Numbered from the stretch's first letter, positions 24,702 to 52,409 are shown. The stretch is 64,000 nt of DNA from Azolla caroliniana (GCA_043228905.1 JBHGNT010000018.1:14198001-14262000), one strand, 5' to 3'. A program made the numbers and translations. Notes: generated by a model from the letters alone, not told the origin.

Positions 24702-24922
24702 GAGCTCTGCCTCTTGCCTCTGCTGCAAGCAAGCAGAGAGAGAGAGAGAGAGAGAGAGTGGGGGTTCAAATTTTCAAATTCTGAAGCTCTCTCCTGCATC
24801 AGGCACATGGAGAGATGTTCATTGTTGCTAATGCACCAAATTATGGTGAAGAAAACAAAGACTTTCAATAGTCTTTGACATATATACATATATGTAGATA
24901 GATAGATAGATATATATGTATG

Positions 24923-28014: not shown

Positions 28015-28215
28015 TATGTATGTATGTACGACGTGTCTAAATACCTCCAAAATTTGAAGAGGGCAAGTGAGGGAATCGCAGAGAGGGACGATGCAAGTCG
28101 CTTAATCAAGGGCAGGTGCGACCTGCACCGTCTGATGTGGAAAAAAAACGCTCGAAGAAATCGTCACTTCTTGGGGAGCCCGACTAGGAGCCTCGCTTAC
28201 TAATCAAGAGCTTGA

Positions 28216-28325
28216 CTAGGAGCCCCACTGTCTGAGACCCTCTATCACTAGGAGCCCCACTGTCTGAGACCCTCTATCACTAGGAGCCCCACTGTCTGAG
28301 ACCCTCTATCACTAGGAGCCCCACT
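28216..28325. repeat. 32-bp tandem repeat x3 (ACTAGGAGCCCCACTGTCTGAGACCCTCTATC), MULE subterminal
   Basis: Three direct copies visible, flanked by further GGAGCCC motifs. Confidence 0.9.
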
Positions 28326-29533
28326 CATTAATCAAGAGTCGGGCTAGGAGCCCCGCTCATTATTAATGAGCACTAACTATAAAAACCTTGAATCACTCAT
28401 TTTGAATCTATTTTGAAAAGAGAGTTTTTTAGGGTATTTGGAGGGAAGAATCAGAGTGGAGCACCACTTTCCACCAGCGAGCACTTCCCAACCACCTACA
28501 TTCGATCCACAAAACGAAGGCAATAATAGGTATGTATTTTCATGGTTATTTTTATTTTTTACATCATTTAGGGTTTCTTTTCATTTACATTTGATCATAT
28601 GGTTCCATATTCTAACATGGTGAGGGACTTAGTTGTTCCATTTTTCAAATGTATCATATAAATGCATTGTTATAATTTCACCATCAATATGAAGAAATGT
28701 TGAATTAGAAATAACTTTTTTGTATTTTCTTTCAACCCATTTTCATTGGTTTCCACCATACGAAACAAAGCTCAAATCAACACAAAATATGTTTGCTCAA
28801 GCATTGATTATCCCACATACTTAGTTACAACACAAGGTACGATTATCTTGAGCAGTTATGTATTCACGTTTACATACGTAGGAATGCAATTATTTTGAGC
28901 ACACGGATGTGGATACACATCATAGGTTTGTTATTTTCCAATTGGATGATGACAATGATAATATTATGTATGAGAGACTAGTTAAGCATTGTAAGCATAG
29001 ATATAATCACCATGAGCTCGTGACTAACTGCTACCAAATATTAAAGAGGGCAAGTGAGGGAATCGCGAAGAGGGACGGTGCATGTCGCACCGTTGTTGGC
29101 GCGTTCGATCTCCACCGTCCAAGATGGATAAAAAGCTGACAACGTCTGTCACAAGGAGCCCGACTCTGTGAAAAGGAGCCTGACTCTGCGAAAGGGAGCC
29201 TGACTCTGTCAAAAGGAGCCCCGTTGTCATACAACCTCTACAAGAGGGAGCCCGACTCTGTCAGAAGGAGCCCCGCTGTCAGACCACATCATTAAGAAGG
29301 AGCCCGACTCTGTCAAAAGGAGCCTGACTCTATAACAACAAACATCAAAAACTCCACAAAATTGTAAGTGTACAACAAATATTTGCCATGAAACTGATCA
29401 TAAAATTTCTCAAAAAAAACTAAAGATTCAAATAACAACTCTTACATAAAATATTAAAATGTCAAATGTTGACAACCCTAAAATGAAATATGAATATACA
29501 CATTACATATTAAGATTATGGCTCATGTCGGGA

Positions 29534-32500
29534 TTATTGCAAGATGCAACCACAATTTTTACAGCATGTAACATTTGAGTCCCTTGAAGTCAAGGTCAAG
29601 CCATCACAACGCAAACACCGAACCTTCTCATGGTCAACCAATGGCAATCTCCTCCTAGCCCGACTAGCACCTCTTTGTAGTTTTCCGGAGTGGGATTTGG
29701 AAGTGTTTGGGGAGCTGCCAATAAGTTCTTGTGAGATGTCTATTGTTGCACTTCTTTTGGCACCGATTTGTTGGTTGCGACTTATTGATCTACCATCTTC
29801 TTCATTGGTTGATTTTGGTGCACCAACGCGATACACCTTCTCAGTCACATCTTCCAATGTTTGTATACCTTCGACAATAGTTGCACGGTCAAAGGTTCCT
29901 AACCCTTGCTCGAGACATTGAAGTGCTTTCACGACCGTTTGTATTTTGGACTTGAATGATTCAATCTCGGATATTGTGGGGTTTGTCTCCTCTACTTGCT
30001 CTACCTCTGCCTCCACTTCTATTTCTGTATTATGGTCCATTAGCATTTGGGTCACGTGATCTATAAAAGGCAATGAGCCACATAAATGTGGCATATGCCT
30101 CTCAATAATCATTCGGATACCTAGTAAATGCTTACATTTACTCACAATGTCTTGGCAATCACAATATGAGCATTGGAGTGAGACATTATACCATAGAGTG
30201 GGAGTCGTCATGCTCAAGATTCTAAACCAATATCGGGCCTCGTCGACAATTTCAATTGTGGAAGTATTGTCGACATACCTTTCCAATATTCTCTCCGCTT
30301 CTTTAAGTCGGGACCTTTGATCCCTACAATTCGTACGGGGTGCAAACCGACCACTCTCACATATTTCTTGTCGTTGCTTGTACCACTCTATTACCGTTCC
30401 TCCTATGCAAGTGCCAGTTTCACTGTCCCCGATTAAGACATGCAGAAGGTCGGTATTTAATCGGTTTATTCTTCCCCTCAAGGCAGTATACTTGATAAAC
30501 TACCAATGTCTTTCCACAATATTGGTAGTGTCAACGTGTCCATAGTTGAACATTCTACCAAACTTGGGCCAGAGTTTTCTCCACACACATGTCAAACCAC
30601 ACCATCCTCCTTCTATATATTGCCAAACACCGGGCTTGTCCGCATATTCTAACTTTAACTCCTCACACATTGCATTGAATGATGATTCGGTAATGCATTG
30701 CATCAGTTGGCACATTCGTTGATAAAGATGGATTCTCTCATTTGCACTTACTTTTGGCAACAAGTTGTCCACCCATGACTTTTTGGCGTGAAACTGACAC
30801 AACGAAAGTCGACAATGTGTTTGGGACCGTTGCCCATTTACAACAATCCAAGATTGACGGTCTGTTGCAACTGTCATGATATGGCAAGACTCGAACCCAT
30901 GACCTTAGGTTATATGGGTCGAGCTCTTGACCATTAGATCATCTATTGTAATACGTAAGATATTATTTTCATTTACATTTTATTATAGGAAATTAGTGTA
31001 TATTCCAGATTTCTCTAGAACATTCTAGAAGCTTCAGGATTACTCTTGAAAACACTATAAAAGAGGGCACTAGGCATTATGTTGAACCAAATTGGTTCAA
31101 CACTAGTCTTAAGCCTTTTAGCCATCATTGTATATTCTCTTCATATAATACATATCTTTCTTATCATCACTCTCTCTCTCTCTCTCCGTCTCGCTCACTT
31201 CTTCCTTCTCTCGAAGAAGTTCTACACCTCTCATAGTACTAATCCTTCGTTTAGTACTAATTCCTTCTCTGTCTCAGTACTGTTCCTGACAGTTACACCT
31301 CTCATAGTACTAATCCTTCATTTAGTACTAATTCCTTCTCTGTCTCAGTACTGTTCCTGACAGTTTGAACCAAATTGCCTACCTTCTGTCTCTCTCATTT
31401 CCTACTAATCTTTTATTCCTCTTTTCTTTCAACCCATGGCCACTGTTAGCGCTGAAGAATATCAATCTGTTTTCTCGGAATTTCAATGCTTGAAGGAGAA
31501 GTTCCATGCTTTGGAACAAGAAAACCAACGGTTGTTGGGGGATCTTCAGCAAATCTCCTTAGAAAAGCAGCAAACGCAATAACAGCATGGGGAACTTGTG
31601 TTATGCGTGCAACAACTTGAAGCAACCATCGTAGTGATGCAACAACAAGGGCCCGGAACACAAGGGATTCATAAAGAACCCAAGATTGGCCTTCCCATGA
31701 AGTTCGATGGAACGCGATCGCAGTTTAGAGGGTTCCTTAACCAGGTACGATTAGTTATTCAAATGCATCCTTCCCGATATCCCACCGATGCATCACGAGT
31801 GGGTTTAGTAGGCACTTTGTTAAGTGGCTCAGCGTTGTCATGGTTCGCTCCACTATTAGAAAAGGAATATCCGTTACTCAACAATTTTGAAGAGTTTCTA
31901 GGTGAGTTTAAAGCATGTTTCGGAGATACTGACAGCATCAGGACCGCAATCAACAAAATTCGGCGATTACGCCAAGGTGATCGTCCAGCCTCTGCATACG
32001 CTGCAGATTTTCGCCTACTCACCGCCAATATCCCTTGGGATGATCAAGCGTTGATGGAGCAATTCCGTTATGGTTTATGCAACGACGTCAAGGATTTACT
32101 CTTGACCTTCCCCGAAGAGCCAAAGTCCTTAACAGAAGCAATCAGTCGCGCGGTGAGATGTGACAACTGCCTCTTTGAGCGACGTTCGGAACGACAGCTA
32201 CAGATGCCGAGGGCAAGATCAGAGCCCACCTACCCCTCAGTGGTAGCAAGACCTTTTCCGAGGGAGTCATATAATGCGCCTCCAGCGAATACTCCGACTT
32301 CGATGGAGATTGACACTACACGTCGTCGAGGGCCATTATCCGAAGAAGAAAAGCAGCGACGCTGTACAAATCGACTATGTCTTTACTGCGGTGGACCAGG
32401 ACATATCGCAATAAATTGCCCCCATAGGCCAAGAAGACAGGTAAACCAAATAGTCACTAGTTCTAATTGTATTAAACCCGAGCCTATTTCAGTAGGGATA

Positions 32501-35500
32501 TCTGATAGTCCTAATAGTACTAATAGCCCAGATCTAGCAAACAAATTTGATGTCCTTAGTCAGTTAGAAGAAGAGTTAAATGACTAAGTCCAGCCAAAAT
32601 AGGAGCCGTTTGGTTGGACAACCCTAGATCTGTGCAACCCATTAGTGGTTCCATTCCCTCTAAGCAAGTTAGTGATGTGTTCGTAGCCCAAGTAATAATT
32701 AGTACTAAAAGTACCCCTCCATTACATGTCCTAGCACTCCTAGATTACGGAGCTAACTCTTGCTTTATGGATAAGAAATTTGCTCAAGCTCATAAGATAT
32801 CCCTAAGAAAACTCAAGTGTCCAGCCTCTGTAGTAGTCATTGATGGACGTCCCATTGCTTCCGGAAATATCATAGAAGAGTCAGAGCCCATTAATATTGT
32901 CCTAGATAACTTAGCATGTGTAGTATCATTTAATATTATTAGTATCCCAGAACATCCTATAGTTTTAGGATTATCGTGGTTCGAGTTACATAACCCAGAC
33001 ATAGATTGTAGAACAAGAGAAATCCGGTGTCGACAAACCCAAGGGTCAACTCAGAAGATGGCAACCATTTCGCTACGTCAGTTGCAAAAAGAAGGGCGCA
33101 AGGAGGAAATGTTCCTCTTTGCAATATCAGTAAACCCCTCCAACACCACTAAAGAAGAATCCACCGTTCACCTTCCCGAGAAGTATAGTCATTACGCCGA
33201 TGTGTTCAATAAAGTACAAGCCAACACACTTCCTCATCATCGACCGTACGATTGCCCCATCGATTTACAACCGGGAAAAGAGCCGCCATGGGGACCGATC
33301 TACAATTTGTCACCAACCGAGCTGGAAGTCCTTCGGGCCTATATAGAGGAGAATTTGGAAAATGGTTTCATTCGACATTCGAAATCTCCAGCCAGCGCGC
33401 CCATTTTCTTTGTCAAGAAAAAAGATGGATCACTTCGTCTCGTTGTAGATTACCGTGGCTTGAATAAGGTTACAATTAGGAATAGGTATGCTCTTCCCCT
33501 TATCTCAAATCTTTTAGAACGGATCAATGGTGCCAAGTTCTTCACGAAGATCGACTTACGGGGAGCATATAACCTCGTACGGATCCGACCAGGAGACGAA
33601 TGGAAGACCGCGTTTCGCACCAGATATGGGCACTTCGAGTATACGGTCATGCCGTTCGGCCTCACTAATGCGCCAGCAGTCTTCCAACACATGGCTAATG
33701 ATATATTCCGAGATCTATTGGATGATTGTTTGATCATCTATTTGGATGATCTACTGGTTTATTCAAAGACCCAAGAAGAACATGATTCTCATGTACTATT
33801 AGTACTAAAACGACTTCGAGAACATGGTCTGTATGCAAAGCTGGAAAAATGTAGTTTCGGGTGCAACCAAGTGGAATTTCTCGGCTACATCATTTCGTCA
33901 GAAGGCATCTCCATGGACCCAGCTAAGGTCAAAACGGTGGTAGAATGGCAGACTCCGCGTTCGGTGCGGGATGTGCAATGCTTCCTAGGCTTTGCCAATT
34001 TTTACCAGAAGTTCATACAAGATTACTCAAAGATCGTTCTACCTCTCACACAACTTACCAGGAAGGGACAACCGTTCATCTGGTCTGAAGAAACAAACAT
34101 GGCTTTCGAGAGTCTTAAAAAGGCATTTACATCGGCTCCAATTCTAGCTCATGTCGATCCGGAAAAACCATTCATTATCGAAGCTGACGCATCGGATTTT
34201 GCATTGGGGAGCATTCTGTCACGACAGGGGAATGATGAGAAGCTACATCATGTGGCTTTTCACTCACGCAAGTTTGACGCCGCCAAAATCAACTACGAAA
34301 TTCATGATAAGGAGCTATTGGCAATAGTGGATTCTTTTATGCAATGGAGGCATTTTCTGGAGGGATCCTCTCATCCAGTCACCGTATTTAGTGACCACAA
34401 GAATCTTGCCTACTTTCAGGATGCTCGTGTGTTGAATCGACGTCAAGCTTGGTGGGCCCACTTCCTCACACATTTCGACTTCAAAATTACATATCGTCCG
34501 GGGAGGCACCAAGGGAAGGCAGATGCATTATCACGACGTTCGTATCTAGCACCCCGTCCCGGCGAGCCAGCTTTCGATAACCAAAAACAAGTTATCTTGG
34601 GACCGGCACGACTACAAACAACACAGATCTTTGACATGCCTATGGATTCCCGCGTTATCGATACCATACGTGAAGACTTGAAGACAGATGCGTTCGCCCA
34701 AGCTATACTAGCACAAATTGATCCCTCTCGAGCGTCGTGTTCACAGTTGCAACCACCAGGTACGGACTATCGGCAATTCAAATACCATGATGGATTACTC
34801 TTCTTTAAAGAACTTTTGTATGTTCCTAATGGTTCTTGCCGCCTTCGAGTAGTACAAAATTGTCATGACACATATACAACTGGGCATTTTGGTAGTACTA
34901 AAACATTACATTTAGTACAACGATCATTCTGGTGGCCCTGTATGTGACAATTTGTCAAGGATTTTGTTCGGACTTGTGATACATGTTGCAGAGCGAAAAT
35001 GCCAAGGCATCATCCATATGGTTTATTAGAACCATTACCAATTCCAAGCAAGCCGTGGCAATCCATTGCTCTAGACTTCATCACAGATCTTCCAGTCTCT
35101 AAGGGCTTCAATGCGATTCTAACGGTGGTCGATCGATATACGAAGATGGCTCATTTCTTGCCATGTACCAAGGAGATCTCCAGTAAAGACACTGCCGAAA
35201 TTGTCATGCGTGAAGTATGTCGGCATCATGGACTTCCCGATAGTATCATCAGCAACCGTGGACCCCAGTTCGTGTCAAAATTCTGGAAGCACCTTTTTAA
35301 CATGCTTAAGGTCACTTGTAACCTCTCCTCCGGCTACCACCCACAAACCGACAGCCAAGCTGAACGAACAAATCAAACGCTGGAGCAGTATCTGCGGTGC
35401 TTTCTCAGCTATCATCAGGATGATTGGGCAGATATTCTCCACTTCGCCGAATTTGCCTATAACAACTCTATCCACGCATCCACTAAAGTTACGCCATTTT

Positions 35501-36453
35501 ATGCTTATACGGGATGTCACCCCCGGTGGAGTGTACTTGAAACCCTAGAGGTGTCCACAAATCCATGCGCGGAGGATCGTTTGGAGCGGTTACGCAAGAT
35601 ACAAGCGGATTTATCTACTCATCTCCAACAAGCTCAACAAACACACAAGGTCTACGCGGATCTTCATCGACTTCCATCCAGTTTTAATATTGGAGATCGG
35701 GTGTGGCTGCTACGACGACACATCAAGACTACTCGCCCATGTGAGAAGTTGGATTATCGGCGATTAGGTCCTTTCCGTATTATTGGACAGATTAATGATG
35801 TCGCTTTTCGTCTCGATCTACCTCCTCAACTTCGGATACATCCAGTGTTTCATAGTTCTCTCCTCGAACCCTACCACGAGAGCACCATCCCAGGACGTCT
35901 TATCCAACCTCCACCCCCGATCGACCTTGAAGATGGGCCGGAGTACGAGGTTGCCGCCATCCTTGATTCCAAGATTGTTCGCAACAAGCTCTACTATCTA
36001 GTCGATTGGCTAGGCTATAGTCCCAGCGAACGTACTTGGGAACCGATCGAGAATGTGACCAATGCTCGTGCTCTTCTTGAAGACTTCCATCGTCAATATC
36101 CACACAAACCGGTTCCTCAATCCAAGACGACTCGTGACACTCGTCGTTTTAAAGGGGGGATAGTGTCATGATATGGCAAGACTCGAACCCATGACCTTAG
36201 GTTATATGGGTCGAGCTCTTGACCATTAGATCATTTATTGTAATACGTAGGATATTATTTTCATTTACATTTTATTATAGGAAATTATTGTATATTCCAG
36301 ATTTCTCTGGAACATTCTAGAAGCTTCAGGATTACTCCTGAAAACACTATAAAAGAGGGCACTAGGCATTATGTTGAACCAAATTGGTTCAACGCCAGTC
36401 TTAAGCCTTTTAGCCATCATTGTATATTCTCTTCATATAATACATATCTTTCT

Positions 36454-36489
<36 letters not shown>

Positions 36490-38220
36490 CTCGCTCACTT
36501 CTTCCTTCTCTCGAAGAAGTTCTACACCTCTCATAGTACTAATCCTTCGTTTAGTACTAATTCCTTCTCTGTCTCAGTACTGTTCCTGACAGTTACACCT
36601 CTCATAGTACTAATCCTTCGTTTAGTACTAATTCCTTCTCTGTCTCAGTACTGTTCCTGACAGCAACCACATTAGTTATGGCATTATATGATGTCCAACA
36701 TTTATCGATCATTATCGCATTTGGCCTCACCATGGGCATCCTTGCGAATATGACTCTCAAACAAGTTTCTAATGCCACTTGCTCATGGTTTGACCCCTTA
36801 TCAGAACTACAAAGCATGTACCATAATGGGATACCAATTCCCATGGTGTTGGGGGCAACTGCTGCAGATAATGGTAGCCCGAATTGGTTTGTTTTAAATG
36901 TCAAGTCGATTGCCCAAGAGTTGTTTAGGGTCAACCGCTCACACATTTCCAACATCCATTGATCTTGAAGTATCAAGATAAATGGTTATATGGGGGGAGA
37001 TCCTGCTTCACCAGTCAAGTAGGGTTGAACATGAGCCACTTTCCCAAGATCTCGGAGTGCATAGGCATCTTGCATCATCAAAGCCCAATCAACCTTAGTC
37101 ATGGCACTCCCAATTTTTAACCTATTTGCCATGTTATGGACCTCCTTTGGTATCATAAAGAACTGATAGGTAACAAGCTCTAATGGACTAGCCTTGGACT
37201 TATGATATGCTTCCTTACGCATGCTCATTCGTGCCACATGCCTTGCACACCCAACATCAAATAGGTCATCTTTGCAACAACTTATGACATTGGGGTGTAC
37301 TGGCAAATGGTACAAATCCGACCTACTACATGGTACATGACCACTATGAGGTCCATATATTGAAATGGTAAGTGTCTCAATGTCAACATCGTCATTGATT
37401 CTAACGTCCACATGGAATGTGCACCCACATCGGGGTGTGCACCTGCGTCATCGAGTGGAATTAGACGCAAGTCGAGATGTCCCAGCACAATGGCAACTAT
37501 ACCTAGTCACACGCATACCCTTCTTGACTCCTTTCCTTAAACGTGTGTGGTACTTGGTTTGCAAATCCATGAGCGCATCATCTAATTGGTGGGTTTCTAC
37601 CTTGATCACTTCTATGGGTAGGGTTTGTTATATTTGGCCATGCTTGATCCCAAACCTTCTATCGAGTCGAACTTCGATACCGTTTGGCAACCACAACTTG
37701 TAATGAGTGCTTTCACGTACTCCGGTGGGATGCCATAATCACGTACATCAGTCACATAAACTAGCTTTAACTCTTTAAGAGTCTTTGAAAATGTGTGATG
37801 GGATGTGTCACCATGTGACGCTGATACTACTTCCCTCCATTTCTCGACGTATAAGACTTGAAGATTAGGTGATGCTTTAAGGTAAATTGCACTCTCATTC
37901 CTGAGTATGAGACGACTCTTCATGCGCCTCCATGCATGAAGTGAAAGAGGTGCTCCCCTCGCGACATCACGTAATGCTTCCAATGTTACCTTAACTTGTC
38001 CCAATAAATCTTTAATCATCAAATTATACGTACCTCTTGAAAATGCAAAATACATGGGGGAACAATACATGAAGGGATCGACCGCCTCATCCTCACGATC
38101 GGAATTTGATGACTCAAAAGGATCCTCCAATTTGTCCTCGGATGCATTGGATGACCATGACGTATCCTCCAATTCATCTTCCGACATGGCGAAGACACCA
38201 TGATGCATTGTGCTCTCCAT
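29534..38220 (-). pseudogene. MULE transposase with SWIM finger, split by a Gypsy insertion (30872-36662) and frameshifted
   Basis: In order: CGCTFHV...HSGH (WRKY/FAR1-like finger), AIDLTFKTNQFGLPL and PNAIMIDK (acidic motifs), LCQFH (CxxH), TTNIVERHW (E), CDCQD...CKHL (SWIM), and a terminal CLRC...CKNC. The sequence rejoins across TSD GCAAC. Confidence 0.9.
30872..36662 (+). mobile_element. Ty3/Gypsy chromovirus (Tcn1-like) copy 1
   Basis: LTRs 30872-31362 and 36164-36662 (about 9 substitutions), TSD GCAAC, PPT AAAGGGGGGATAG. Gag 31436-32587 with a CAA>TAA stop at ~31580; pol 32614-36171 with a CGA>TGA stop at ~34945; chromodomain present. Confidence 0.96.
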
Positions 38221-38665
38221 AGCAAATACAATATGATCAAGAATGCCAGTGATTGAGGTGAATGAAATCAAATGAATTCAAATAATTCACATGAATGGAG
38301 TAGATTAACGATTGAGAATGAGAGTGAATGAAATAAAATGGCCTACAATATGATCAAATGAAATCAAATACAATATGATCAAGAATGCCAGTGATTGAGG
38401 TGAATGAAGTGAATGAAATCAAATGAATTCAAGTGAATGAATTCAAATAATTCACATGAATGGAGTAGATTAACGATCGAGAATGAGAGTGAATGATATG
38501 AGTGCGAGTGATTAATAGACTATTAAGGAAGGGAATGGGTTAATTGGGAATGATGGGAAGACTCTTAGTGCATGCTACTGAATTTGGTGAATTAATTTAC
38601 TATAGTCGTTAATATGACTGTTGAGACGCCATCATTACACGTAGTTGGGCACTTCCCTATTACTG

Positions 38666-38890
38666 TGTCGGGCTCCACATTATCAGTCGGGCTCCCTTTT
38701 TACCAGAGTCGGGCTCCCTTTTGAATGAGTGGGGCTCCCTTTTTTAATGAACATGAATGAGTCGGGCTCCACATTAATCAGTCGGGCTCCCTTTTTACCA
38801 GAGTCGGGCTCCCTTTTTAATGAGTGGGGCTCCCTTTTTTAATGAACATGAATGAGTCGAGCTCCACACTAATCAGTCAGGCTCCCTTTT
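38666..38890. repeat. Array of ~10 AGTCGGGCTCC motifs (higher-order repeat of ~90 bp) upstream of the MULE transposase
   Basis: Directly visible; the same motif occurs at the MULE termini. Confidence 0.85.
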
Positions 38891-39570
38891 GAATAAGATT
38901 CACATTGAGTCTTGTTATGTCTTTGAAGAAGATTGACATCGAGTCTTGTTATGTCTTTGAATAAGATTGACATTGAGTCTTGTTATGTCTTTTGTATTGT
39001 TTACAACAAGGACCGAAGCACTCTTTCTATATACTTACTCTTTCTACAACAACATTCTTTGATTACAACACTCTTTCTATATACTTACTCTTTCTTGGCC
39101 TTTCTCAAAAACCATTGCCGTGACTACTTGTCAATAAGCTATTAGTTTTATTCTTTTGACACCCAAAACATACAACCAAAATGAGATTCATAATGAGATT
39201 CAAATATTGATTTGATATTACAAAATGATTTTCAGATAGAGTCCACATTGAGTGATTTACAACCAAAATGAGATTCAAATATTGATTTGATATTACAAAA
39301 ATGAGAATGTACATCAAATTGAGTCATATACAACCAAAATGAGATTCAAATAATAAGACTCACAACAAGAATGTACATCAACAAAGACATATACAACCAA
39401 AATGAGATTCACACAATAAGACTCAAAACCAGAATGTACATCAAATTGAGTCATATACAACCAAAATGAGATTCAAATATTTACCAGATATTACAAAAAA
39501 GTTGACAATCCGCATGAGATAGTAAATCGAGATCATATGTTTGATGTTACAAAGTACAACATGCTAGTGA

Positions 39571-41400
39571 TTAAAATAACCCTATGCACAGAGTCCTTCG
39601 TGTCCATTTTGCCATGATTTTCCGAAGGAGCTGCACATCTTCGAATCCAAACCATTGCTCCTTACCCTACACCACAAGATGCCATCAACCTAAGCCCAAA
39701 TTCAATTCTCATAAATACTTACAAATTGATCGGACTCAAATCCTTGAATGAACTCCTCGACCAACATTCGAATGGTTTGCATCACGTAATACCCACAATC
39801 CGTCCCATTAGGTTGGGTTGGGATATGCAATACCTGGAACCGCTCGTTGTTGATGATGCAATGGTCGTGTGTGGCGCTAGAGATATGTCGTACAGCCAAA
39901 TCACCCAATGTCTTCATGCCTGCAGTCGGATGATTATTTAGTGGATCGCAAAAAATAATATGGTTCCTCACCTTGGCATCGAGACCTATAGGAGTCTGTC
40001 GCATCTTCAACCAAAGCACCCAATGCCCTGAGTGCAATATCGGAATGAAGACATATTCCCATTCAGGAACCCGAGTGAGTATGTCTTCACCCTTATCACT
40101 TTGGCCTTCTAGTTGTACCCATAGTGGATCCACAATATGAAACCGCTTGTTGATCTCAGGGGGCAACGAGTACTCCATCCATAAGTGGAAGAGGGTCATC
40201 ATCCATGTGGATGCCATCTCCCCTACAGTGCACAACGAACATAGTTCTACCTCCGTAAAAAAGACCGCTAGATCTAATTGTCGAGAAGCCACCTGAAACC
40301 TGTTTATTAGGCTAGATTAGTAACTACAAAAAAAACATGAAGTTAACTATTGATCTCATGCCCCCACCATAACGGCATACTTAGTGAACTTATTTCTTGT
40401 TGTGTTATCCCATGTTTTTGTGATTGTCCCAGGACCAATAAAGACAATCCCAATGTCCGCACCCTCATCTGTGTCAGATGATGTAATGACCGACAATTTA
40501 CTAGGGTCCACAGTTTTCTTGCGGATTTGGATTTTAGGCCTCCTTGGTTGTTGGGTTGTCGATTCTGACAGTTGGTCTTGACCACCATCGATCTCGACAT
40601 GTGTCTCATCTTCTGGCATGGGAATTCCATGATTCTTACACTAAAATTCATACATAAGATTCACACATAATCATTCACACACTAGATTTAGACTCACATA
40701 AGATGCACACATAATCATAAACCTTACTTACATAAGCTTCAGACACAGCCGCAATCTTCAACTTCAATTGGGCATCCTATCCTCCTTTCCCTCGTCATAC
40801 CTGGCCATCTGTTGGCTGACGAATTGGGCAATGAAATCGGCCTCCTTGGATGTTTGAAGTGCGTTCAGAGTGGCTTTGAAGATCTTAATCGCTCTTGTCC
40901 TCAACTTCCTCATGTGTGATTGGTGTAACCTGTTGTACTTTAGCTTCGGATCCAAAAAACGCTTTATTGATCGTTGTCTTTCGTAGTGGCTGATGAATGA
41001 CGTGGCTGTACTCCTCATGGAGGTCGATTGCTCTTCTTCTTCTATCTTTAGCCCCCGAGGCAGTACTACACGGATGCCATGTGCCTTCTGTAAGTGAGCC
41101 TCCATGTCAACTTTTTTGCGAAACCATCGTACCTCTTTTCTACATGAATCTCCAACGATACATGTGCGACATTTGATACCTGTCGAGTCTCTTCCCGCCT
41201 TGAAGAGGGACATGGGGTCCACTACAACAATGGTGTGACATTTGCATTAGAAAAACCCAATATATACTTACTTCAATAATGATTATAAGAATGTACATCA
41301 ACTCACCATTTACATTGATATCTTCAACACTTGGCCCCACGTCATGTATGGGGTTCGTATCCATGTTCGAGTCTTCAATAATGATGTTTTCAGCATCCAT
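39571..41400 (-). pseudogene. MULE accessory gene: C2H2-like finger plus ULP1/C48-family cysteine protease, spliced
   Basis: Exons about 41307-41400, 40732-41221, 40381-40640, 39723-40299 and ~39571-39666 with GT-AG borders. Protease motifs VFIPILHSGHWVL, IFCDPL and PTQPNGTDCGYYV (H/D/Q/C). CRTC...CRKEVRWFRKKVDMEAHLQKAH finger. Two frameshifts inferred (~40785, ~39650). Confidence 0.8.
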
Positions 41401-42390
41401 ATTGTTGGATTTGGGGCACCTAGCACCCTTTCTTACAAAAACCCTAAACCATCATTCAAGTTAGCACACAAACATCACTATTTATACACAATATAAAGTT
41501 GAGAAATGATTCATGCCATACCTCCCTTCATAGGGTATTGTTTCACCCCAATCTGCATCAAAGTCTATGAAGGTCTTGGACCGACTAGCCATCTGTACAA
41601 AACACATGCCAAAACATTACCATATGTTTGTCTTTAAATTCAAGAATACTTGAGTCTATCCTATTGTTTCTACACAATACATTAGTGTTAAGGATTTTGG
41701 AATGGACAAAAATTGTCAATGATTTCAAAAAATAGATCAATCTTAACAAATTCTAACATATCAATGTCAATAATTTAAAATTCATGAATGCTACTTGCAG
41801 TTTTTATTTTAGTTTTTGTAATATATATACATAGAGGGCACATTCTAAATTAAGGGAGATAGCCATAATAATGATACGTATTTAAATCATAGTCATAGTT
41901 CATGAGTCCATGACAAATAGTTGGTCTTCATGGAGAATCCTAATTTCATTCAGCAAGAATTTATCATTTATCATTTAGAATACATTAATGGACACAACGT
42001 TTTACTTCCAACTTAAAACATACTTACGTAGACTTACATAGCACACAACTTTTTTTAGTAAGGCATTCATTACATTATTATTATTTGGGGTCAAGCCATC
42101 GCAAAGAATGTATACAAGATTTGAGATTTGACCTTTAAATGTGGGCATAAAAAAGCTCAATAATGCACGAATCACATGGGCAAATTCAAGCATTCAAATA
42201 ATGACATTCAAACCTAATATGGATGATGATTGCTTGAATACACATAGACAAGTATTATTTTTATTCCATGTCTACTCAAAACCATGGTTGATTGCTTGAA
42301 GACACAATAGAAGGAATAAAATCATATTAGGTTCAAGCAATCATCCATATTAGGTTGATGGTTTTTATGACATGGAATAAAACATAAACC

Positions 42391-42530
42391 TAATAGAAGG
42401 AATATGATACCTAATAAAAACCTAAACCTAATAGAAGGAATATGATACCTAATAAAACCCTAAACCTAATAGAAGGAATATGATACCTAATAAAACCCTA
42501 AACCTAATAGAAGGAATATGATACCTACCT
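42391..42530. repeat. 38-bp tandem repeat x3.5 (TAATAGAAGGAATATGATACCTAATAAAACCCTAAACC)
   Basis: Copies start at 42391, 42429, 42467 and 42505. Confidence 0.9.
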
Positions 42531-44950
42531 CTAGATTGCAGGTGCTCGCGGACAACCGATGTTGTGCCTCACGGAAGATGTCTGCAACAGGTGCTGCCAG
42601 ACAGTAGGTGGTGCGGCGCGCTCAAAAACCCTAAACCCTCAACCTCACGCTTCTTGTTTGAAAACAGGAAAAAAATGACAGAAAAAGGCTTTTTATACTT
42701 CCCTCAAACTAATGAGAAGGGCTCCCTTTCACAAAGTGGAGCCCTTCTTTAATGAGACGGGCTCCTTTTTTTGTGAGACGGGCTCCCTCTTTAATTGGTG
42801 CGCTTTTTTGCGCCTTTTCAACAAGGGCTCCCTTTCACAAAGTGGAGCCCTTCTTTAATGAGATGGGCTCCTTTTCCTGTGAGACGGGCTCCCTCTTTAA
42901 TTGGCGTGCTTTTTCGCGCCTTTTCCACAACCACATTGGACGGTGCAGATCGCACGCGCCCTCATTTAGCGACCTGCACCGTCCCTCTCCGTGATTCCCT
43001 CACTTGCCCTCTTTAATATTTGGTAGTAGTTAGACACCACGTCACCATGAGGACATGCCATTATAGCCAATGAATACCATGTATGTATGTGTGCCTGCAT
43101 ATTCTAAATGTTTGAATTCTTCCACATGATCCTTCGAAATATGGAAATCATGTTTGAATATGGAACCATTTGTTTCTCATATGCCATATTCTAAATGTTT
43201 GAAGTTCACTCTACATCGATATCTTATTAAGAGGACTAGGTTCTCAAATATGGTTCTAGACATACAATAGGCTTTGTAATCAAAGTAGGATTTGAAAATT
43301 GATATATTTCAAACATTTTAATATGTAATGTATTTGAATCACCATGAATAACATGTTTGTGTGGTGTCTCTGATTTCATGGGCTTCTTTCGTATCCCTTT
43401 TTCTTCTTGCTTCTCATATGCCATATTCGAAATGCTATTGGAGACACCTTGCATGTTCCACATTTCTCCATTGAATATTTCATATGTTATTATATATGGA
43501 CTTGTTTCCTCCCAATTATTTAGCTATATCAATAAAAGTTGTTGCATGCATCTGACGATTTCTTAGTGTGCTTGGATTGTGAAATTTGAACTTGAATGCA
43601 ATGGACATATTGGTGGTTATTGAAAATGTCATGTGGTTTGTACATATGGCTAGTCGGTCCAAGACCTTCATAGACTTTGATGTGGATTGGGGTGAAACAA
43701 TACCCTATGAAGGGAGGTATGGCATGAATCATTTCTCAACTATATATTGTGTATAAATAGTGATGTTTGTGTGCTAACTTGAATGATGGTTTAGGGTTTT
43801 TGTAAGAAAGGATGCTAGGTGCCCCAAATCCAACGGTATGGATAGTGAAAACATCATTACTGAGAAGCCTATGAATGACTCGAACATGGATACGAACCTT
43901 CGGAAAATCATGGATACGAACATGGATTAAGCCTTCTATTTTTGAAGCTTTTAGATTCATACCTATATAAATTGTGTATGCAATGCTTTAGTAAAAGCTT
44001 GTTTCTTGGTTGGGGATCTTCTTGGTTGCATACGCCCTAGTAAGTCCATAATGAAGAAGATATACTATGTGAACATTACACTAAGGTACACAAAGTAATC
44101 TACAATAATGTTATATGGGGAGTTGAAGATTATGCTCGAAATCCTCAAAAATCAATAAAAGGTATATATCACTTGGAAGCTTAATTGATTTCAACATTCC
44201 AATTTTTCCATCGAGGAGCCCGACTCATATCAAAAGAGGGAGCCCGACTAATTAATGAGGAGCCCGATTCATTGATATGCAGGTGCCCAACTACGTGAAA
44301 TGATGGTGTTGCAACGGTCATACTAACGATCACACTAAATTGATTCACCAAAGTCACTAGCATGCACTAAGAGGTGAACTCATTCACTAAGAGTTGAAAT
44401 CATTCACTTCATTCACAATCTATTAATCACTCGCACTGATTTCATTCACCATAGTGATGAATCAAACCATAGAAATCATTCATGAACAATTGGCATTCTC
44501 GATCATTCACTAAGAGCTGAAATCATTCTCGAAGTGTTGACATTATTCTCGAACTAAATCATTGAAGAAACTAAAATCATCTACTTCAGTCATGTGCATT
44601 ATCGATCACATGGAATTCATTTGAACTTCAATCATTGGCATTCATTTGAATTCATTCACTTTATTCATTGGCATAATCGCTCACATTCACTTCATTCACC
44701 TCAATCATTGACATTCTCGATCACATTGTATTCGCTCACTTCAATCACTGTAGTAATCAACCACAACCATCTATGGAGAGCACAATGCATCATGGTGTCT
44801 TTGCCATGTCGGAAGATGAATTGGAGGATACATCATGGTCGTCCAGTGCATCGTTTGTATTTGAGGTCTCGGGGTTTTGTATCCATGTTTATCCTTTTGC
44901 TGGAAGTTAAAAGCTATATAACATTTCAGGTTCATTTCTAACATGGTGGT

Positions 44951-45291
44951 TGTTACGGGCATGACCATTTAATATCCCGTGGTGAGAATTTACCGTAGTA
45001 TTCTATACACGTGGATAAGTGTGAGGGTTAAACGAGAGTGTAAAGAAGGGGAGGATTACTTTTAATCCTCGGGATTGAGACAACCCATTAGGTCAAGTGT
45101 GAACTTGCCTGGGGGCCTTGGGTATCGCTATAAATAAGAGGCCTAACTACCCTCATTTGATGATCTTTATTGACTACATCGAGACTCTGCTCTTGTGGTG
45201 GGTCATGGATAAGTGTGAGGGTTAAACGAGAGTGTAAAGAATACTACGGTAAATTCTCACCACGGGATATTAAATGGTCATGCCCGTAACA
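44951..45291. mobile_element. 341-bp TG..CA insertion with perfect 54-bp terminal inverted repeats and 5-bp TSD
   Basis: IR 44951-45004 / 45238-45291, TSD GTGGT (44946-44950 / 45292-45296), 36-bp internal direct repeat 45012-45047 / 45206-45241, TATAAATA at ~45128. Confidence 0.9.
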
Positions 45292-47302
45292 GTGGTGGTA
45301 ATAGTGTTGGCAACTATTGGTGGAGTCATATCTTCTTATGTTGGCTCATGATCCATAGGTAGAGTATTCCATGGTATAAAGTCAAATAATAAAGAAAAAG
45401 CACCCAAATTATGAGAGTTAACTTTACTTGGAACATGAGTGAGTTGCATATTAAAGTGACAATCAAACATAGCCCAAATGGTAAGAGCTAACTTTACTTG
45501 AACAAAAGTGTTAAGGGCTCGATGCGGATTAGAAGGATCATAGGGTAAAAGATCTACAATTGCAAAAGATGAGAATTCATCATGTTGTAACTTGTAGATG
45601 TGAAACTATCATATAATAATTGTGGAAGCTAAGTGGCCATCTAGGGAGAAGTAATAGTGCTTGCCATTCTATTTTTATTTGGCAAATGAGTTCTTGAAAG
45701 CTGGGCACAAAGGTACGGTCAACAACATATGGTTAAGTGTTTGATGATGACAATTTTACACCTTTTAGACTATTATGGCACCATGAACACATTTAGTAAT
45801 TAAGGTGTTGAATTCAATACCACTATTACGACCTCTTAAATGTAAATGAAGTGTAAAGTGACTACATACCCTTAACCAAATGTCGAAACCCTAAAAAAGA
45901 AAGAATTCAAAGAAGATAAGGATTTGAACCATAGACCTAACATATCTTAGACAAAACTATAACCACTACCCTATTCACTTTTGTTTTATATGTCAATTGT
46001 TTTATTTTTTTGAGAGTCGGGCTCCTACCCAAAGTTGGTCGGGCTCCTCGTGGCAGAGGCTGTCAGACAATGGGGCTCCTTGTGACAGAGTCGAGCTCTT
46101 GGTGATAGTCGCTGTCATCTTTTTATCCACATTGGACGGTGATCACACGTGCCATCAACGGTGCGACCTGTACCGTCCGGTGATTCCCTCACTTGCCCTC
46201 TTTAATTTTTGGTAGTAGTTAGTCATGAGCATGTATGTATGTACATATGTATATGTATAGCTCGTGTCTATTTGCTACCAAATATTAAATAAGGCAAACG
46301 AGGGAATCGCGGGCACATATGGTGCAGGTCGCTCAGTTGAGGGCCCGTGAGTTCTGCACCCTCCAATGTGGATAAATAGCTCACAACGTCTGTCACCAGG
46401 AGCCCAACTCTCTCACAACCTCTATCACCAGGAGCACGATTGTCTGACATCCTTTGTCGTCGGGAACCTGACTGACTCAGGGTACGAGCTCGACTCAGAA
46501 ACAGACATCAAAAACTCCCAAAAAAATCCAAGTGTAAAACAAAAATTTGCCATGAAAATGTTACATAAAAATTATTCACAAAACCACTACTCTTCCAATT
46601 GCACAAAACTTAAAACTTAAAACTCAAAAACCACACAAACTTTTTTTCCATAAAAAAATATCCTGCATTGGTATTAAACTTAAAGTGGCCAAATGCAATA
46701 TACAGAATAGTCCACTATTACAAAGAATATTGCAACATATTTAACTAGAAAACTATTGAACGCTCATGTTGTCATAACTAGACTCGAACCCATAACCTTT
46801 TGTTACACGGGTCGAGACTTTACCATTAGGTTATGAATTGTAATTTGAAGGATATTATTTTCATTTAGGTTTTATTGGGAAATTGATGTATATTCCAGAT
46901 TTCTCTGGAACATTCTAGAAACTTCAGGAGTATTCCTGAAGACACTATAAAAGGAGGCGCAAGGCATTAGTTCGAACCAAATCGGTTCAACGCCAGTCTT
47001 AAGCCTTCTAACTACTGTTGTATATCTTCCTTCATATAATACATATATCTTTCGCATCATCTCTCTCTCTCTCTCTCTCTCACTCACTCATTCCTTCTCT
47101 CAAAGTTCGACACCTCTCATAGTACTAATCCTTCTCTGTCTTAGTACTATTCCCCAACAATAGTACTAATCCTTCTTTTAGTACTAATTCCTTCTCTGCC
47201 TTAATAGAGTTCCTGATAGTTTGAACCGATTTTTGGGTGCCTGTCTGGTCTTTTCTCTCCCTCCTTTCCTACTAGTCTCTTATTTCCCTTTTCCTTCATC
47301 CC

Positions 47303-48472
47303 ATGGCCACCGTTAGCGCTGAAGAGTATCAATCCGTTTTCTCGGAATTTCAATGCTTGAAAGAGAAGTTTCATGCTTTGGAACAAGAAAATCAACGCTT
47401 GTTGGGGGATCTTCAGCAAATTTCCTTAGAAAAGCAGCAAACGCAACAACAACATGGGGAACTTGCGTTACGCGTGCAACAACTCGAAGCAACCATCGTA
47501 GCAATGCAACAACAAGGGCACGGAGCACAAGGGATTCATAAAGAACCCAAGATTGGCCTTCCCACGAAGTTCGATGGAACGCGATCGCAGTTTAGAGGGT
47601 TTCTTAACCAGGTACGGTTAGTTATTCAAATGCATCTGTCCCGATATCCCACCGATGCATCACGAGTGGGTTTAGTAGGCACGTTGTTAAATGGCTCAGC
47701 ATTAGCATGGTTCGCTCCGCTACTAGAAAAGGAATCTCCAGTACTAAATAATTTTGAAGAATTCATAAGTGAGTTTAAAGCATGTTTTGGAGATACTGAC
47801 AGCATAAGGACTGCAATCAACAAAATCCGGCGATTACGCCAAGGTGACCGTCCAGCCTCCGCATATGCTGCAGATTTCCGCCTACTCGCCGCCGATATCC
47901 CCTGGGATGATCAAGCATTGATGGAGCAGTTCCGCTATGGTCTACGCAACGATGTCAAGGATTTACTCTTGACTTTCCCTGAAGAGCCAAAATCATTAAC
48001 AGAAGCAATCAGTCGAGCGGTCAGATGTGACAACCGCCTCTTCGAGCGACGTTCGGAACGACAATTTCAGATGCCGAGGGCAAGATCCGAGCCTACCTAT
48101 GCCTCAGTGGTAGCAAAACCTTTTCAAAGGGAGTCCCATAATGCGCCTCCAGTAAGTACTCCAACTCCAATGGAAATTGACACTACACGTCGTCGTGGGC
48201 CGCTATCGGAGGAGGAAAAGCAACGACGCCGAACAAACCGATTATGCCTTTATTGCGGTGGACCAGGGCATATCGCGATAAACTGTCCCCATAGACCAAG
48301 AAGGCAGGTAAACCAAGTCGTTGTTAGTTCTGACTATACTAAACCCGAGTCTATTTCAGTAGGAATCTCTGATAGTCCTCATAGTCATAATAGTCCTAAT
48401 AGTACTAATAGTCCGAATCTCGCAAACAAATTTGATGTCCTTAGCCAATTAGAAGAAGAGTTAAACGACTAA
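47303..48472 (+). CDS. gag: Gag (Tf1/sushi/PEG10-like capsid, CCHC knuckle), 389 aa
   Basis: Intact ORF with PTKFDGTRSQFRGFL, LRQG, PMEID and CLYCGGPGHIAINC. Confidence 0.93.
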   Translation: MATVSAEEYQSVFSEFQCLKEKFHALEQENQRLLGDLQQISLEKQQTQQQHGELALRVQQLEATIVAMQQQGHGAQGIHKEPKIGLPTKFDGTRSQFRGFLNQVRLVIQMHLSRYPTDASRVGLVGTLLNGSALAWFAPLLEKESPVLNNFEEFISEFKACFGDTDSIRTAINKIRRLRQGDRPASAYAADFRLLAADIPWDDQALMEQFRYGLRNDVKDLLLTFPEEPKSLTEAISRAVRCDNRLFERRSERQFQMPRARSEPTYASVVAKPFQRESHNAPPVSTPTPMEIDTTRRRGPLSEEEKQRRRTNRLCLYCGGPGHIAINCPHRPRRQVNQVVVSSDYTKPESISVGISDSPHSHNSPNSTNSPNLANKFDVLSQLEEELND

Positions 48473-48498
48473 GTCCAGCCAAAATAGGAGCCGTTTGG

Positions 48499-51400
48499 TT
48501 GGACAGCCCTAGATCTGTGCAGCCCATTAGTGGTTCCATTCCCTCTAAGCAAGTTAGTGATGTGTTCGTAGCCCAAGTAGCAGTTAGTACTAAAAGTACC
48601 CCTCCAGTACATACCTTAGCCCTTCTAGATTCCGGAGCTAATTCTTGCTTCATGGATAGGAATTTTGCCCGAGCTCATCAGATATCTCTCAGAAAGCTCC
48701 CATGTCCAGCCTCAGTAGTAGTCATTGATGGTCGTCCCATTGCTTCTGGTAATATCATAGAAGAGTCGGAACCCGTTAATATTGTCCTAGATAACTTAAC
48801 ATGTGTAGTATCATTTAATATTATTAGTATTCCAGAACATCCCATAGTTTTAGGATTACCATGGTTCGAGTTACATAACCCAGACATAGATTGGAGGACA
48901 AGGGAAATCCGGTTGCGACAAACCCAAGGATCTACCCAGAAGGTTGCAACCATTTCGCTACGTCAGTTGCGTGAGGAAGGGCGCAAGGAGGAAATGTTTC
49001 TCTTCGCAATATCAGTACAACCCTCCAGCACCACCAAAGAGGAGTCCACCGTTCAACTTCCCGAGAAGTATCGTCAGTATGCTGATGTGTTCGATAAAGT
49101 ACAAGCCAACACACTTCCTCATCATCGGCCGTACGATTGCGCCATCGACTTACAACCGGGAAAAGAGCCGCCATGGGGGCCGATCTACAATTTGTCACCA
49201 ACCGAGCTAGAAGTCCTTCGAGCCTATATAGAGGAGAATTTGGAGAACGGTTTCATTCGGCATTCGAAATCTCCAGCCGGCGCACCCATTTTCTTCGTCA
49301 AGAAAAAAGATGGCTCGCTTCGACTCGTTGTAGATTACCGTGGCTTGAATAAGGTCACAGTAAGAAATAGGTATGCTCTTCCCCTTATCTCAAGTCTTTT
49401 AGAACGGATCAACGGTGCCAGGTTCTTCACGAAGATCGACTTACGAGGAGCCTATAACCTCGTACGGATCCGACCAGGAGATGAATGGAAGACCGCGTTT
49501 CGCACCAGATATGGGCACTTCGAGTATACGGTCATGCCGTTCGGACTCACTAATGCGCCGGCAGTCTTCCAGCACATGGCGAATGATATATTTCGAGATC
49601 TCTTGGATGATTTTTTGATCATCTATTTGGATGATCTACTGGTTTATTCAAAGACCCAAGAAGAACATGATTCTCATGTACTATTAGTACTAAAACGACT
49701 TCGAGAACATGGTCTGTATGCAAAGTTAGAGAAATGTAGTTTCGGGTGCAACCAAGTGGAATTTCTCGGCTATGTCATCTCCTCAGAAGGCATATCTATG
49801 GACCCAGCCAAGGTCAAAACGGTGATAGAATGGCACACTCCGCATTCGGTGCGGGATGTGCAATGCTTCCTAGGCTTTGCAAATTTTTACCGGAAGTTCA
49901 TACAAAATTACTCAAAAATTGTGCTGCCTCTCACACAGCTCACCAGGAAGGGACAATCATTCATTTGGTCTAAAGAGACGGACATGGCTTTCGAGAGTCT
50001 TAAGAAGGCGTTTACATCAGCTCCAATTTTAGGTCATGTGGATCCGGAAAAACCATTCATTATCGAAGCTGATGCATCGGATTTCGCATTGGGGAGCATT
50101 CTGTCACAACAGGGTAACGACGAGAAGCTACATCCTGTGGCTTTCCACTCCCGTAAGTTTGACGCCGCCGAAATCAACTACGAAATTCATGATAAAGAGC
50201 TATTAGCAATAGTTGATTCTTTTATGCAATGGAGGCATTTCCTGGAGGGATCTCCTCATCAGGTCACTGTATTCAGTGACCACAAGAACCTTGCCTACTT
50301 TCAAGATGCTCGTGTACTGAATCGACGTCAAGCTCGGTGGGCCCACTTCCTCACACGCTTCGACTTCAAAATTACATATCGTCCGGGGAAGCACCAAGGG
50401 AAGGCAGATGCATTATCACGGCGTTCGTATCTAACACCACGTCCCGGTGAGCCAGCTTTCGATAACCAGAAGCAAGTAATCTTGGGTCCAGCACGACTGC
50501 AAGCAGCACAGGTCTTTGACATACCCGTGGATTCCGACATTACCAATACTATACGTGAGGACTTGAAGACTGACGCTTTCGCCCAAGCTATACTAGCACA
50601 AATTGACCCCTCTCGAGCGTCATGTTCACAATCACAATCACCAGGTACGGATTATCGGCAATTCAAATACTGTGATGGATTACTCTTCTTTAAAGAACTT
50701 TTGTATGTTCCTAATGGTTCTTGCCGCCTTCGAGTAGTACAAAATTGCCATGACACATATACAGCAGGACATTTTGGTAGTACTAAAACATTAGATTTAG
50801 TACAACGATCATTCTGGTGGCCCCGTATGCGACAATTTGTCGAAGATTTTGTTCGGACTTGCGATACATGCTGCAGAGCGAAAATGCCAAGACATCATCC
50901 ATATGGTTTATTAGAACCATTACCAATTCCAAGCAAGCCATGGCAATCCATTGCTCTTGACTTCATTACAGATCTTCCAGTCTCTAAGGTATTCAGTGCG
51001 ATTCTCACAGTGGTGGATCGATATACGAAGATGGCTCATTTCTTACCATGTACTAAAGAAATATCTAGTGAAGACACCGCCGAAATTGTCATGCGGGAAG
51101 TATGTCGGCATCATGGACTCCCTGATAATATCATCAGCGATCGTGGACCCCAGTTTGTGTCAAAATTCTGGAAGCACCTTTTTAAAATGCTGAAGGTCAC
51201 TTGTAACCTCTCCTCCGGCTACCACCCACAAACCGACGGTCAAGCCGAACGAACAAATCAAACACTGGAGCAGTATCTGCGGTGCTTTCTCAACTATCAT
51301 CAGAATGACTGGGCAGATATTCTTCAGTTCGCCGAATTTGCCTATAACGCTATCCACGCATCGACTAAAGTCACGCCATTCTACGCTTATACGGGATATC

Positions 51401-52053: not shown

Positions 52054-52331
52054 CTAGACTCGAACCCATAACCTTTTGTTACACGGGTCGAGACTTTACC
52101 ATTAGGTTATGAATTGTAATTTGAAGGATATTATTTTCATTTAGGTTTTATTGGGAAATTGATGTATATTCCAAATTTCTCTGGAACATTCTAGAAACTT
52201 CAGGAGTATTCCTGAAGACACTATAAAAGGAGGCGCAAGGCATTAGTTCGAACCAAATCGGTTCAACGCCAGTCTTAAGCCTTCTAACTACTGTTGTATA
52301 TCTTCCTTCATATAATACATATATCTTTCGC

Positions 52332-52409
<78 letters not shown>

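Follow-up and report, generated by a model that had tools for sequence, protein, structure and literature searches.

A 64,000-nucleotide stretch of the Azolla caroliniana genome (GCA_043228905.1 JBHGNT010000018.1:14198001-14262000; hereafter the window) contains at positions 29016-43041 a Mutator element, which is a dead copy of an abundant plant transposon family carrying, next to the transposase gene, a second gene (gene 2) that joins a finger-like segment and a basic helical domain to a cysteine protease of the C48 or ubiquitin-like protease (ULP) type. Purifying selection acts on the finger, helical and C48 parts of its product, and three arrays of short motifs distributed along the element change their motif in concert from one subfamily to another. 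The reading that we put first, with confidence somewhat short of even, is that gene 2 encodes an array-targeted protease relieving repression and keeping its own subfamily active. The helper of 530-540 residues encoded by intact members, composed of an atypical zinc finger, basic helices, linker and C48 cysteine protease, would bind the subfamily-specific arrays at either end as well as the one upstream of the transposase gene; at these arrays it would cut a ubiquitin-like tag, not necessarily SUMO (small ubiquitin-like modifier), off repressive chromatin proteins, and removal of the tag would keep the helper's own subfamily active.

Structure and State of the Focal Element

The initial annotation of this DNA proposed an element bounded by terminal inverted repeats (TIRs) and a 9-bp target site duplication (TSD), and this outline is borne out by identical TSD copies on both sides (Table 1), by two TIR arms 86% alike over 103 bp and by in silico excision of the element with one TSD copy, after which the flanks align unbroken to two further copies in the genome (90% over 1851 nt and 95% over 1478 nt). 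TSDs of other family copies measure 9 or 10 bp. TIRs accompanied by TSDs in the range of 8-11 bp, together with a DDE transposase of Mutator-like element (MULE) type (PF10551 above cut-off; D, D and E motifs present), place the family in the Mutator/MULE superfamily. The minus strand encodes gene 2 and, after it, the transposase, and both genes are broken in the focal copy. The transposase is split by a 5.8-kb long terminal repeat (LTR) retrotransposon, unmentioned before, with LTRs alike at 483 of 492 nt (98%), and bears in addition one frameshift (near 37625) and four stops, of which those at 37450 and 36988 fall, like the frameshift, into its 5′ part. Intact family copies encode the transposase as one open frame of 988 amino acids (aa). 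Its earlier description as a SWIM-MULE enzyme holds for the MULE part (Pfam match of the focal copy at E 7e-8), while SWIM is visible as a motif only, no Pfam SWIM match being obtained for the family transposases. The same transposase clade occurs in Adiantum (45-50%) and Selaginella (36%). Its N-terminus (window positions about 37640-37890; L016:6073-6327) resembles an integrase-type H2C2 zinc-binding domain, the corresponding Pfam hint being weak and confined to the Selaginella relative (E 0.034).

Gene 2: Exons, Selection and Distribution

Gene 2 comprises six AG/GT-bounded exons instead of the five initially assumed, exons 5 and 6 being joined at the predicted GT-AG sites in 5 RNA reads. 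The frameshift already ascribed to the focal copy is confirmed as the loss of 1 nt near 40773, in exon 3. PolyA reads of the same species label are sparse and run in sense over gene 2; since they are mostly less than 99% alike to the copies examined, they come from other copies or from a related strain. For subfamily B no exon 5-6 joint was seen in RNA reads, and its splice site is therefore a prediction.

Searches of the host genome (523 Mb) gave 153 matches for the protease exon (150 of 407 candidates scored) and 150 for the finger exon (150 of 328 candidates scored), and 123 genomic stretches, picked non-randomly from the match lists, were fetched. All six exons are in frame and free of stops in 12 of 41 modelled copies (one with a changed acceptor), the protein having 540 aa in subfamily A and 529 aa in subfamily B; L016 (A) and L024 (B) belong to the intact copies, and subfamilies C and D are more decayed. 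The ratio of nonsynonymous to synonymous divergence (dN/dS), proposed earlier as a check, revealed purifying selection: between sub-lineages A1 and A2 it equals 0.12 for the finger (confidence interval 0.03-0.29), 0.26 for the helical domain and 0.32 for the protease, the linker reaching 0.6 and the N-terminus about 1, and between B1 and B2 it ranges from 0.18 to 0.45. Synonymous sites of gene 2 are saturated in the A-versus-B comparison.

An exon 3 profile search retrieved 79 proteins among 1.84 billion, the named ones originating from Adiantum ferns, where the finger-helix-C48 order is the same in several near-identical copies (P0058, P0080, P0089). Both gene 2 and the transposase occur in Adiantum in several copies, but the returned locus tags are non-adjacent; no locus emerged from a metagenome scan, and the search for longer relatives of the protease exon yielded 0 at E<=0.001 among 288 candidates, a weak negative, as the profile later found relatives.

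These data bear on the supposition that gene 2 is neutral cargo, namely a host ULP fragment captured as in Pack-MULEs, with which the 29 of 41 modelled copies that are not intact and the very low expression of the family (100-117 reads over 8.4 kb per 12.6 million) would agree. We regard it as scarcely credible: dN/dS well below 1 largely refutes it, the finger-helix-C48 fusion is conserved in distant ferns, and gene 2 is unlike the host ULP1 genes in introns and in the lid motif of the protease. The dN/dS values of 0.1-0.45 and the presence of an intact transposase in the same elements likewise exclude membership in Pack-MULEs, and instead of the one-off captured fragment against which the initial annotation had cautioned a multicopy family under selection is found.

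The two halves of the element differ in age. Between A1 and A2 synonymous divergence (dS) is about 0.22 in the gene 2 half versus 0.02 in the transposase half, with a sharp border in the spacer, so the helper module has been exchanged by recombination. Individual pairs of loci behave in this manner, L001 versus L016 (border near L001 position 4600) and L024 versus L068 giving dS of about 0.22 versus 0.02-0.06. Four loci (L018, L019, L020 and L037) have common transposase deletions, and two of them, L019 and L037, keep gene 2 intact, which suggests that a non-autonomous lineage spread along with the helper gene. In the divergent subfamily D, L057 and L064 (G000:C5:22881932-22901899) harbour the finger exon at least 4 times in tandem, every copy being accompanied by an expanded, repetitive exon 2; local amplification is a possible cause.

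Domains of the Gene 2 Product

Peptidase_C48 (PF02902) matches the focal copy above cut-off (E 1.4e-10), as the proposed profile check was to establish, the best solved match is yeast Ulp1 (1euv, E 6.5e-9), and the catalytic residues said to be retained are kept indeed: His in 60 of 62 aligned copies, Asp in 57 of 62 and Cys in 61 of 64, accompanied by the oxyanion Gln in 57 of 63. The His-Asp-Cys triad, this Gln and the PF02902 match place the domain among the C48 peptidases of the ULP/SENP fold.

The region preceding the protease has a pattern of putative zinc ligands, C-x5-C-x15-H-x4-H, conserved from this genome to Adiantum, and departs from the classical C2H2 spacing C-x2-4-C-x12-H-x3-5-H. 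In the model of exon 3 (mean predicted local distance difference test score 87), a hairpin and a short helix are followed by a helix with both His and then by long helices packed into a bundle; basic residues are frequent in the helices that come after the finger (12-13 Lys/Arg per 45 residues). Zinc and DNA binding by this region is plausible. A fold search with VIA-align yielded generic helices only (best Z 7.1), VANC21 was not among the matches listed in fold searches of the gene 2 models, a sequence search of the PDB with the finger exon produced nothing significant, and in an Atlas search with the finger domain the zf-BED leads all stayed under 0.9. Distant relatives (P0045, P0049, P0054, P0055, P0057, P0058 and P0070) have right after the finger a basic GRP motif, presumably AT-hook-like, which is altered in the family of this genome.

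Motif Arrays and Subfamilies

The motif GGAGCCCGACT has 30 matches in the window with at most one mismatch versus 0.34 expected, and 30 of 30 lie within family members, in three arrays. Two of these are subterminal, one per end, and are directed towards the interior of the element; the third precedes the transposase gene at a distance of about 4 kb from both ends. The same three sites are occupied by GGAGCCCGACT in subfamily A, by GGTYRCCCAAC in B and by ACCTAACC in C, all three arrays switching together while the TIR cores stay 85-90% alike. In subfamily A the motifs tend to be spaced by multiples of 10.5 bp, with R 0.85 for 54 intervals of 2 elements. The transposase DNA-binding domain could be classed at 65 loci, 42 of which also have a classable gene 2, with concordance in 42 of 42, and the class of the internal array agrees with both adjacent genes at 36 of 36 loci. 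Since the motif class follows both genes at all classable loci, the arrays follow an element-encoded protein, and the cognate motif arrays postulated earlier thus behave as such protein's sites should. As to which protein might read them, the concordance fits the transposase and gene 2 alike.

Alternatively, the arrays may be amplified sites through which transcription factors of the host drive the two promoters, with neither element protein reading them, an explanation that accommodates the arrays upstream of both genes and a subfamily C motif containing ACCTAAC, an AC element bound by plant MYB factors. We consider it unlikely, as a third array is situated downstream of both genes and the motif changes in all three arrays along with the element proteins.

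The preferred reading, with gene 2 as the source of the array-binding protein, would be consistent with gene 2 being the most diverged part between subfamilies (42-60%), with the placement of one array at a promoter remote from the ends and with the sister lineage E, in which related TIRs enclose an intact 1046-aa transposase including the FAR1-like domain; gene 2 and all three motifs are missing from 8 of 8 lineage E loci, and no GC-rich 8-mer exceeds 4 copies in the one complete E element. Copies of E are few besides, with about ten matches at >=67%. A complete E element with TIRs of about 150 bp, a TSD and no gene 2 is represented by L081 with L101 (G000:C4, about 11994800-12001600), and inverted, nested E copies are present in L082 and L083.

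Candidate Readers of the Arrays

Apart from the very low expression of the family, a number of observations weigh against an array-reading, tag-removing gene 2 product. The C2H2-like finger (CRTC...HLQKAH) of the initial annotation stands as a conserved finger-like set of Cys and His, but only 36 of 60 copies retain the initial Cys of CRTC (the other ligands are present in 56-60 of 60-61), the suggested profile check came out negative, with no Pfam zinc-finger family, zf-C2H2 included, above cut-off, and Foldseek gave 0 matches at E<=0.001 for both models. That the finger itself recognizes the motif became doubtful, given that positions -1 and +3 of its helix are K and D in 56 of 61 and 57 of 61 copies across subfamilies with differing motifs: the predicted base-contact positions are nearly constant, and divergence of the finger does not exceed that of the protease. 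The spacing of motifs in subfamily B is unphased (R 0.24), no A/B/C chimera is present among the 42 loci with both genes classable, and lineage E, being a single lineage, lends modest support to gene 2 as the reader.

The FAR1/WRKY-like domain of the transposase forms an island of divergence concordant with the motif class, its identity falling to 58% between A and B and 43-49% between A and C, while the helical and DDE parts mostly stay at 85-90%. It may be, then, that the arrays are sites of this domain, serving transpososome assembly and self-activation, and that gene 2 is a helper protease acting through protein contacts, which might strip ubiquitin-like tags from the transposase or from recruited repair or chromatin proteins. 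We hold this for a serious possibility, somewhat less likely than the preferred reading. A DNA-binding domain diverging along with the motif inside a conserved enzyme (dN 0.35 versus 0.05 for DDE), its concordance in 36 of 36 internal arrays and terminal arrays directed inward from both ends are what it would lead one to expect. Precedents exist as well: MULE transposases use subterminal repeats, as in Muta1 (PMC5499845), demethylation and activation of cognate ends are achieved by the AtMu1 transposase on its own (bioRxiv 10.64898/2026.08.24.746577), and fusions of transposases with Ulp1 or OTU domains are frequent (PMC2836005). On the other hand, lineage E keeps the FAR1-like domain and has no arrays, cutting does not require an array situated 4 kb inside the element, and the domain is not uniquely fast, because the H2C2-like and C-terminal parts of the transposase diverge too (dN 0.25).

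The substrate constitutes the second difficulty. ULP1-type SUMO proteases contact SUMO by a WLND lid, the motif that holds the tunnel Trp448 of Ulp1 (PMC9603560) and D451, needed for SUMO binding (PMC3216068). In the fern family it is replaced by MAST (M, A, S and T in 63, 61, 63 and 61 of 65 copies), so that the equivalents of W448, N450 and D451 become M, S and T, a register derived from sequence alignment only; Adiantum relatives read KAST or ASS at this position, and WLNDD is retained by two ULP1 genes of the host, whose intron layout is unlike that of gene 2. The change, being old and conserved, suggests an altered substrate site and not decay, and SUMO specificity cannot be assumed. The proteases of KIU genes were judged unlikely to act on SUMO (PMC6117577). 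Thus, from the earlier idea of a sequence-targeted anti-silencing deSUMOylase the C48 protease, its selection and multicopy state, its independence from VANC (see below) and the arrays survive; the finger as reader and SUMO as substrate are doubtful.

Insertion Sites

The family targets (TATG)n microsatellites: a (TATG)n or (CATA)n stretch of >=10 nt is present no farther than 40 nt from 63 of 105 termini, both ends of one element being counted separately, versus 0.97% of 3000 random windows from the same loci. The focal copy is an exception. Termini of other elements in the window, at 28029, 46230 and 46260, share this preference with the termini of L001-L080, and family elements are often found end to end in one (TATG)n tract.

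Such regularity raises the question of whether gene 2 could be the target-site selector, guiding insertion into these tracts as a safe haven, its protease clearing modified proteins from the target. The proportion of termini near the repeats and a preference common to A, B and C, just as the finger helix residues are constant among them, speak for it; nevertheless, we find it improbable, since an E element, devoid of gene 2, likewise has a (TATG)n run close to its 5′ end (one case), and there are microsatellite-targeting MULEs for which only a transposase is reported (MuTAnT, PMC4486113; SaTar, PMC5907723).

Relation to Known Systems

Fusion of a DNA-targeting part with Ulp1 in MULEs is not a new concept, as KIU (KAONASHI) combines the motif-targeting VANC with an Ulp1 domain (PMC13317346); the initial annotation named VANB as the Ulp1-bearing VANDAL gene, which should read the VANC-type KIU gene. 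ULP1 domains in MULEs are well known in general (PMC2836005, PMC6117577). The fern family resembles VANDAL elements in having a separate accessory gene with introns, whose evolution outpaces that of the transposase (PMC13317346, PMC5735166, PMC10398659), a C-terminal Ulp1/C48 domain in the accessory protein, as in KIU, and family-specific motifs in tandem non-coding arrays, including those upstream of the transposase gene, where VANC21 sites lie in respect to VANA21 (PMC5735166). It differs in having clear TIRs in place of the absent or degenerate ones of VANDALs, two genes instead of three, and a C-x5-C-x15-H-x4-H finger with helices. Pfam DUF1985 and DUF287 have no match in exons 2, 3 and 5 or in the full-length relatives P0058 and P0089, which supports independence from VANC, itself described as dicot-specific and MAIN-derived (PMC13547354). 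In view of the clear TIRs and the lack of VANC domains the element is placed outside VANDAL/VANC despite the like layout. Binding and demethylation were shown for VANC and are putative for the fern gene 2.

Protease-bearing cut-and-paste transposons include MULEs with ULP1 from melon, rice, grapevine, maize, hydra and lancelet as well as Ginger1, and the accessible text on them mentions neither a finger-helix module nor subfamily arrays (PMC2836005, PMC13317346); in Ginger1, moreover, the protease is fused to the transposase. Within the Ulp1/SENP proteases the fern enzyme shares the triad, the oxyanion Gln and the Trp after the catalytic His, and is set apart by its lid. Muta1 and AtMu1 likewise have repeated short motifs directed inward inside both ends (PMC5499845; bioRxiv 10.64898/2026.08.24.746577), unlike the fern family without an accessory gene and with sites in the TIRs and none at an internal promoter. 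Insertions into simple repeats, side by side, are known for MuTAnT, TAFT, Micron and SaTar (PMC4486113, PMC5907723); MuTAnT, TAFT and Micron use (TA)n versus (TATG)n here, and in the fern family it is the autonomous two-gene element itself that shows the preference.

No report of this fern system emerged among publications surveyed by title and beginning of the abstract, with Repbase, supplements and most subscription papers outside this survey, so that absence from print is not established. Within the literature searched, the unrelated N-terminal module, the remodelled protease lid, three motif-defined subfamilies and the fern setting appear to be new.

Neighbouring Elements of the Window

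Three family members are present in the window, as initially annotated: the focal element, an older one enclosing it and a truncated one (Table 1), the protease exon being found only in the focal one. Three related Ty3/Gypsy-type LTR elements occupy 30872-36663, 46770-52542 and 54430-57640; two of them are inserted in family members, and the second contains long open frames. The enclosing family member carries at 44951-45291 a 341-bp insertion with 60-bp inverted ends, similar to miniature inverted-repeat transposable elements. A hAT transposase is encoded at 25241-27301 as a single 686-aa open frame (DUF659, Dimer_Tnp_hAT), and a Ser/Pro-rich frame at 24399-24773 resembles exon 1 of a host gene whose product has a transit peptide, on account of which the transposon pile may adjoin the start of a gene.

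Table 1. Features of the focal Mutator element and family members around it (window positions).
Feature	Position	Strand	Remarks
Left TSD	29007..29015		TCACCATGA
TIR, transposase (3′) end	29016..29125	+	
3′ subterminal array	29155..29329	+	GGAGCCYGACT, inward-pointing
Transposase, 3′ part	29516..30871	-	DDE end, SWIM-like motif, C-terminal Cys motif; stops 30502, 29536
Inserted Ty3/Gypsy-type LTR retrotransposon	30872..36663	+	Within transposase, not part of system; 5-bp TSD GCAAC
Transposase, 5′ part	36664..38220	-	Acidic start, H2C2-like, FAR1/WRKY-like, helical, DDE start
Internal array	38666..38885	-	Upstream of transposase gene
Gene 2, exon 6	39571..39666	-	C-terminal helix of protease domain; joint with exon 5 in RNA reads
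Gene 2, exon 5	39723..40299	-	C48/ULP-type protease; His-Asp-Cys and Gln kept, MAST replaces WLND
Gene 2, exon 4	40381..40640	-	Linker
Gene 2, exon 3	40732..41221	-	C-x5-C-x15-H-x4-H finger and basic helical domain
Gene 2, exon 2	41307..41443	-	
Gene 2, exon 1	41522..41592	-	Start codon
5′ subterminal array	42725..42892	-	Upstream of gene 2; mostly GGAGCCCGTCT / GGAGCCCTTCT variants
TIR, gene 2 (5′) end	42931..43041	-	
Right TSD	43042..43050		TCACCATGA
Older family member enclosing focal element	28029..46230	+	Internally deleted; flanks ATGTATGTA, within (TATG)n tract
Third family member	46260..54230	-	Truncated; 3′ end, own LTR insertion, transposase 3′ part

Implications

Taken at its widest, and here we are distinctly tentative, the proposal says that fern Mutators independently evolved a sequence-programmed anti-silencing enzyme, in which a new finger-helix DNA-binding domain would deliver a remodelled C48 protease to subfamily arrays. 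Equally doubtful for the time being is its evolutionary side, according to which the module would have been swapped between subfamilies by recombination and would represent a convergent counterpart of the eudicot KIU/VANC genes. The function of the KIU Ulp1 domain is stated as unknown in a review (PMC13317346), and to the question of why many DNA transposons carry Ulp1-type proteases the present family offers a compact two-gene test system, with young intact copies, three subfamilies that differ in their motifs and a sister lineage from which gene 2 is missing. Should gene 2 prove to be the reader, anti-silencing of a sequence-specific kind would have had an independent origin outside flowering plants and would employ a new DNA-binding domain, and if the anti-silencing interpretation is true for ferns, the role of the transposon-borne protease becomes testable.

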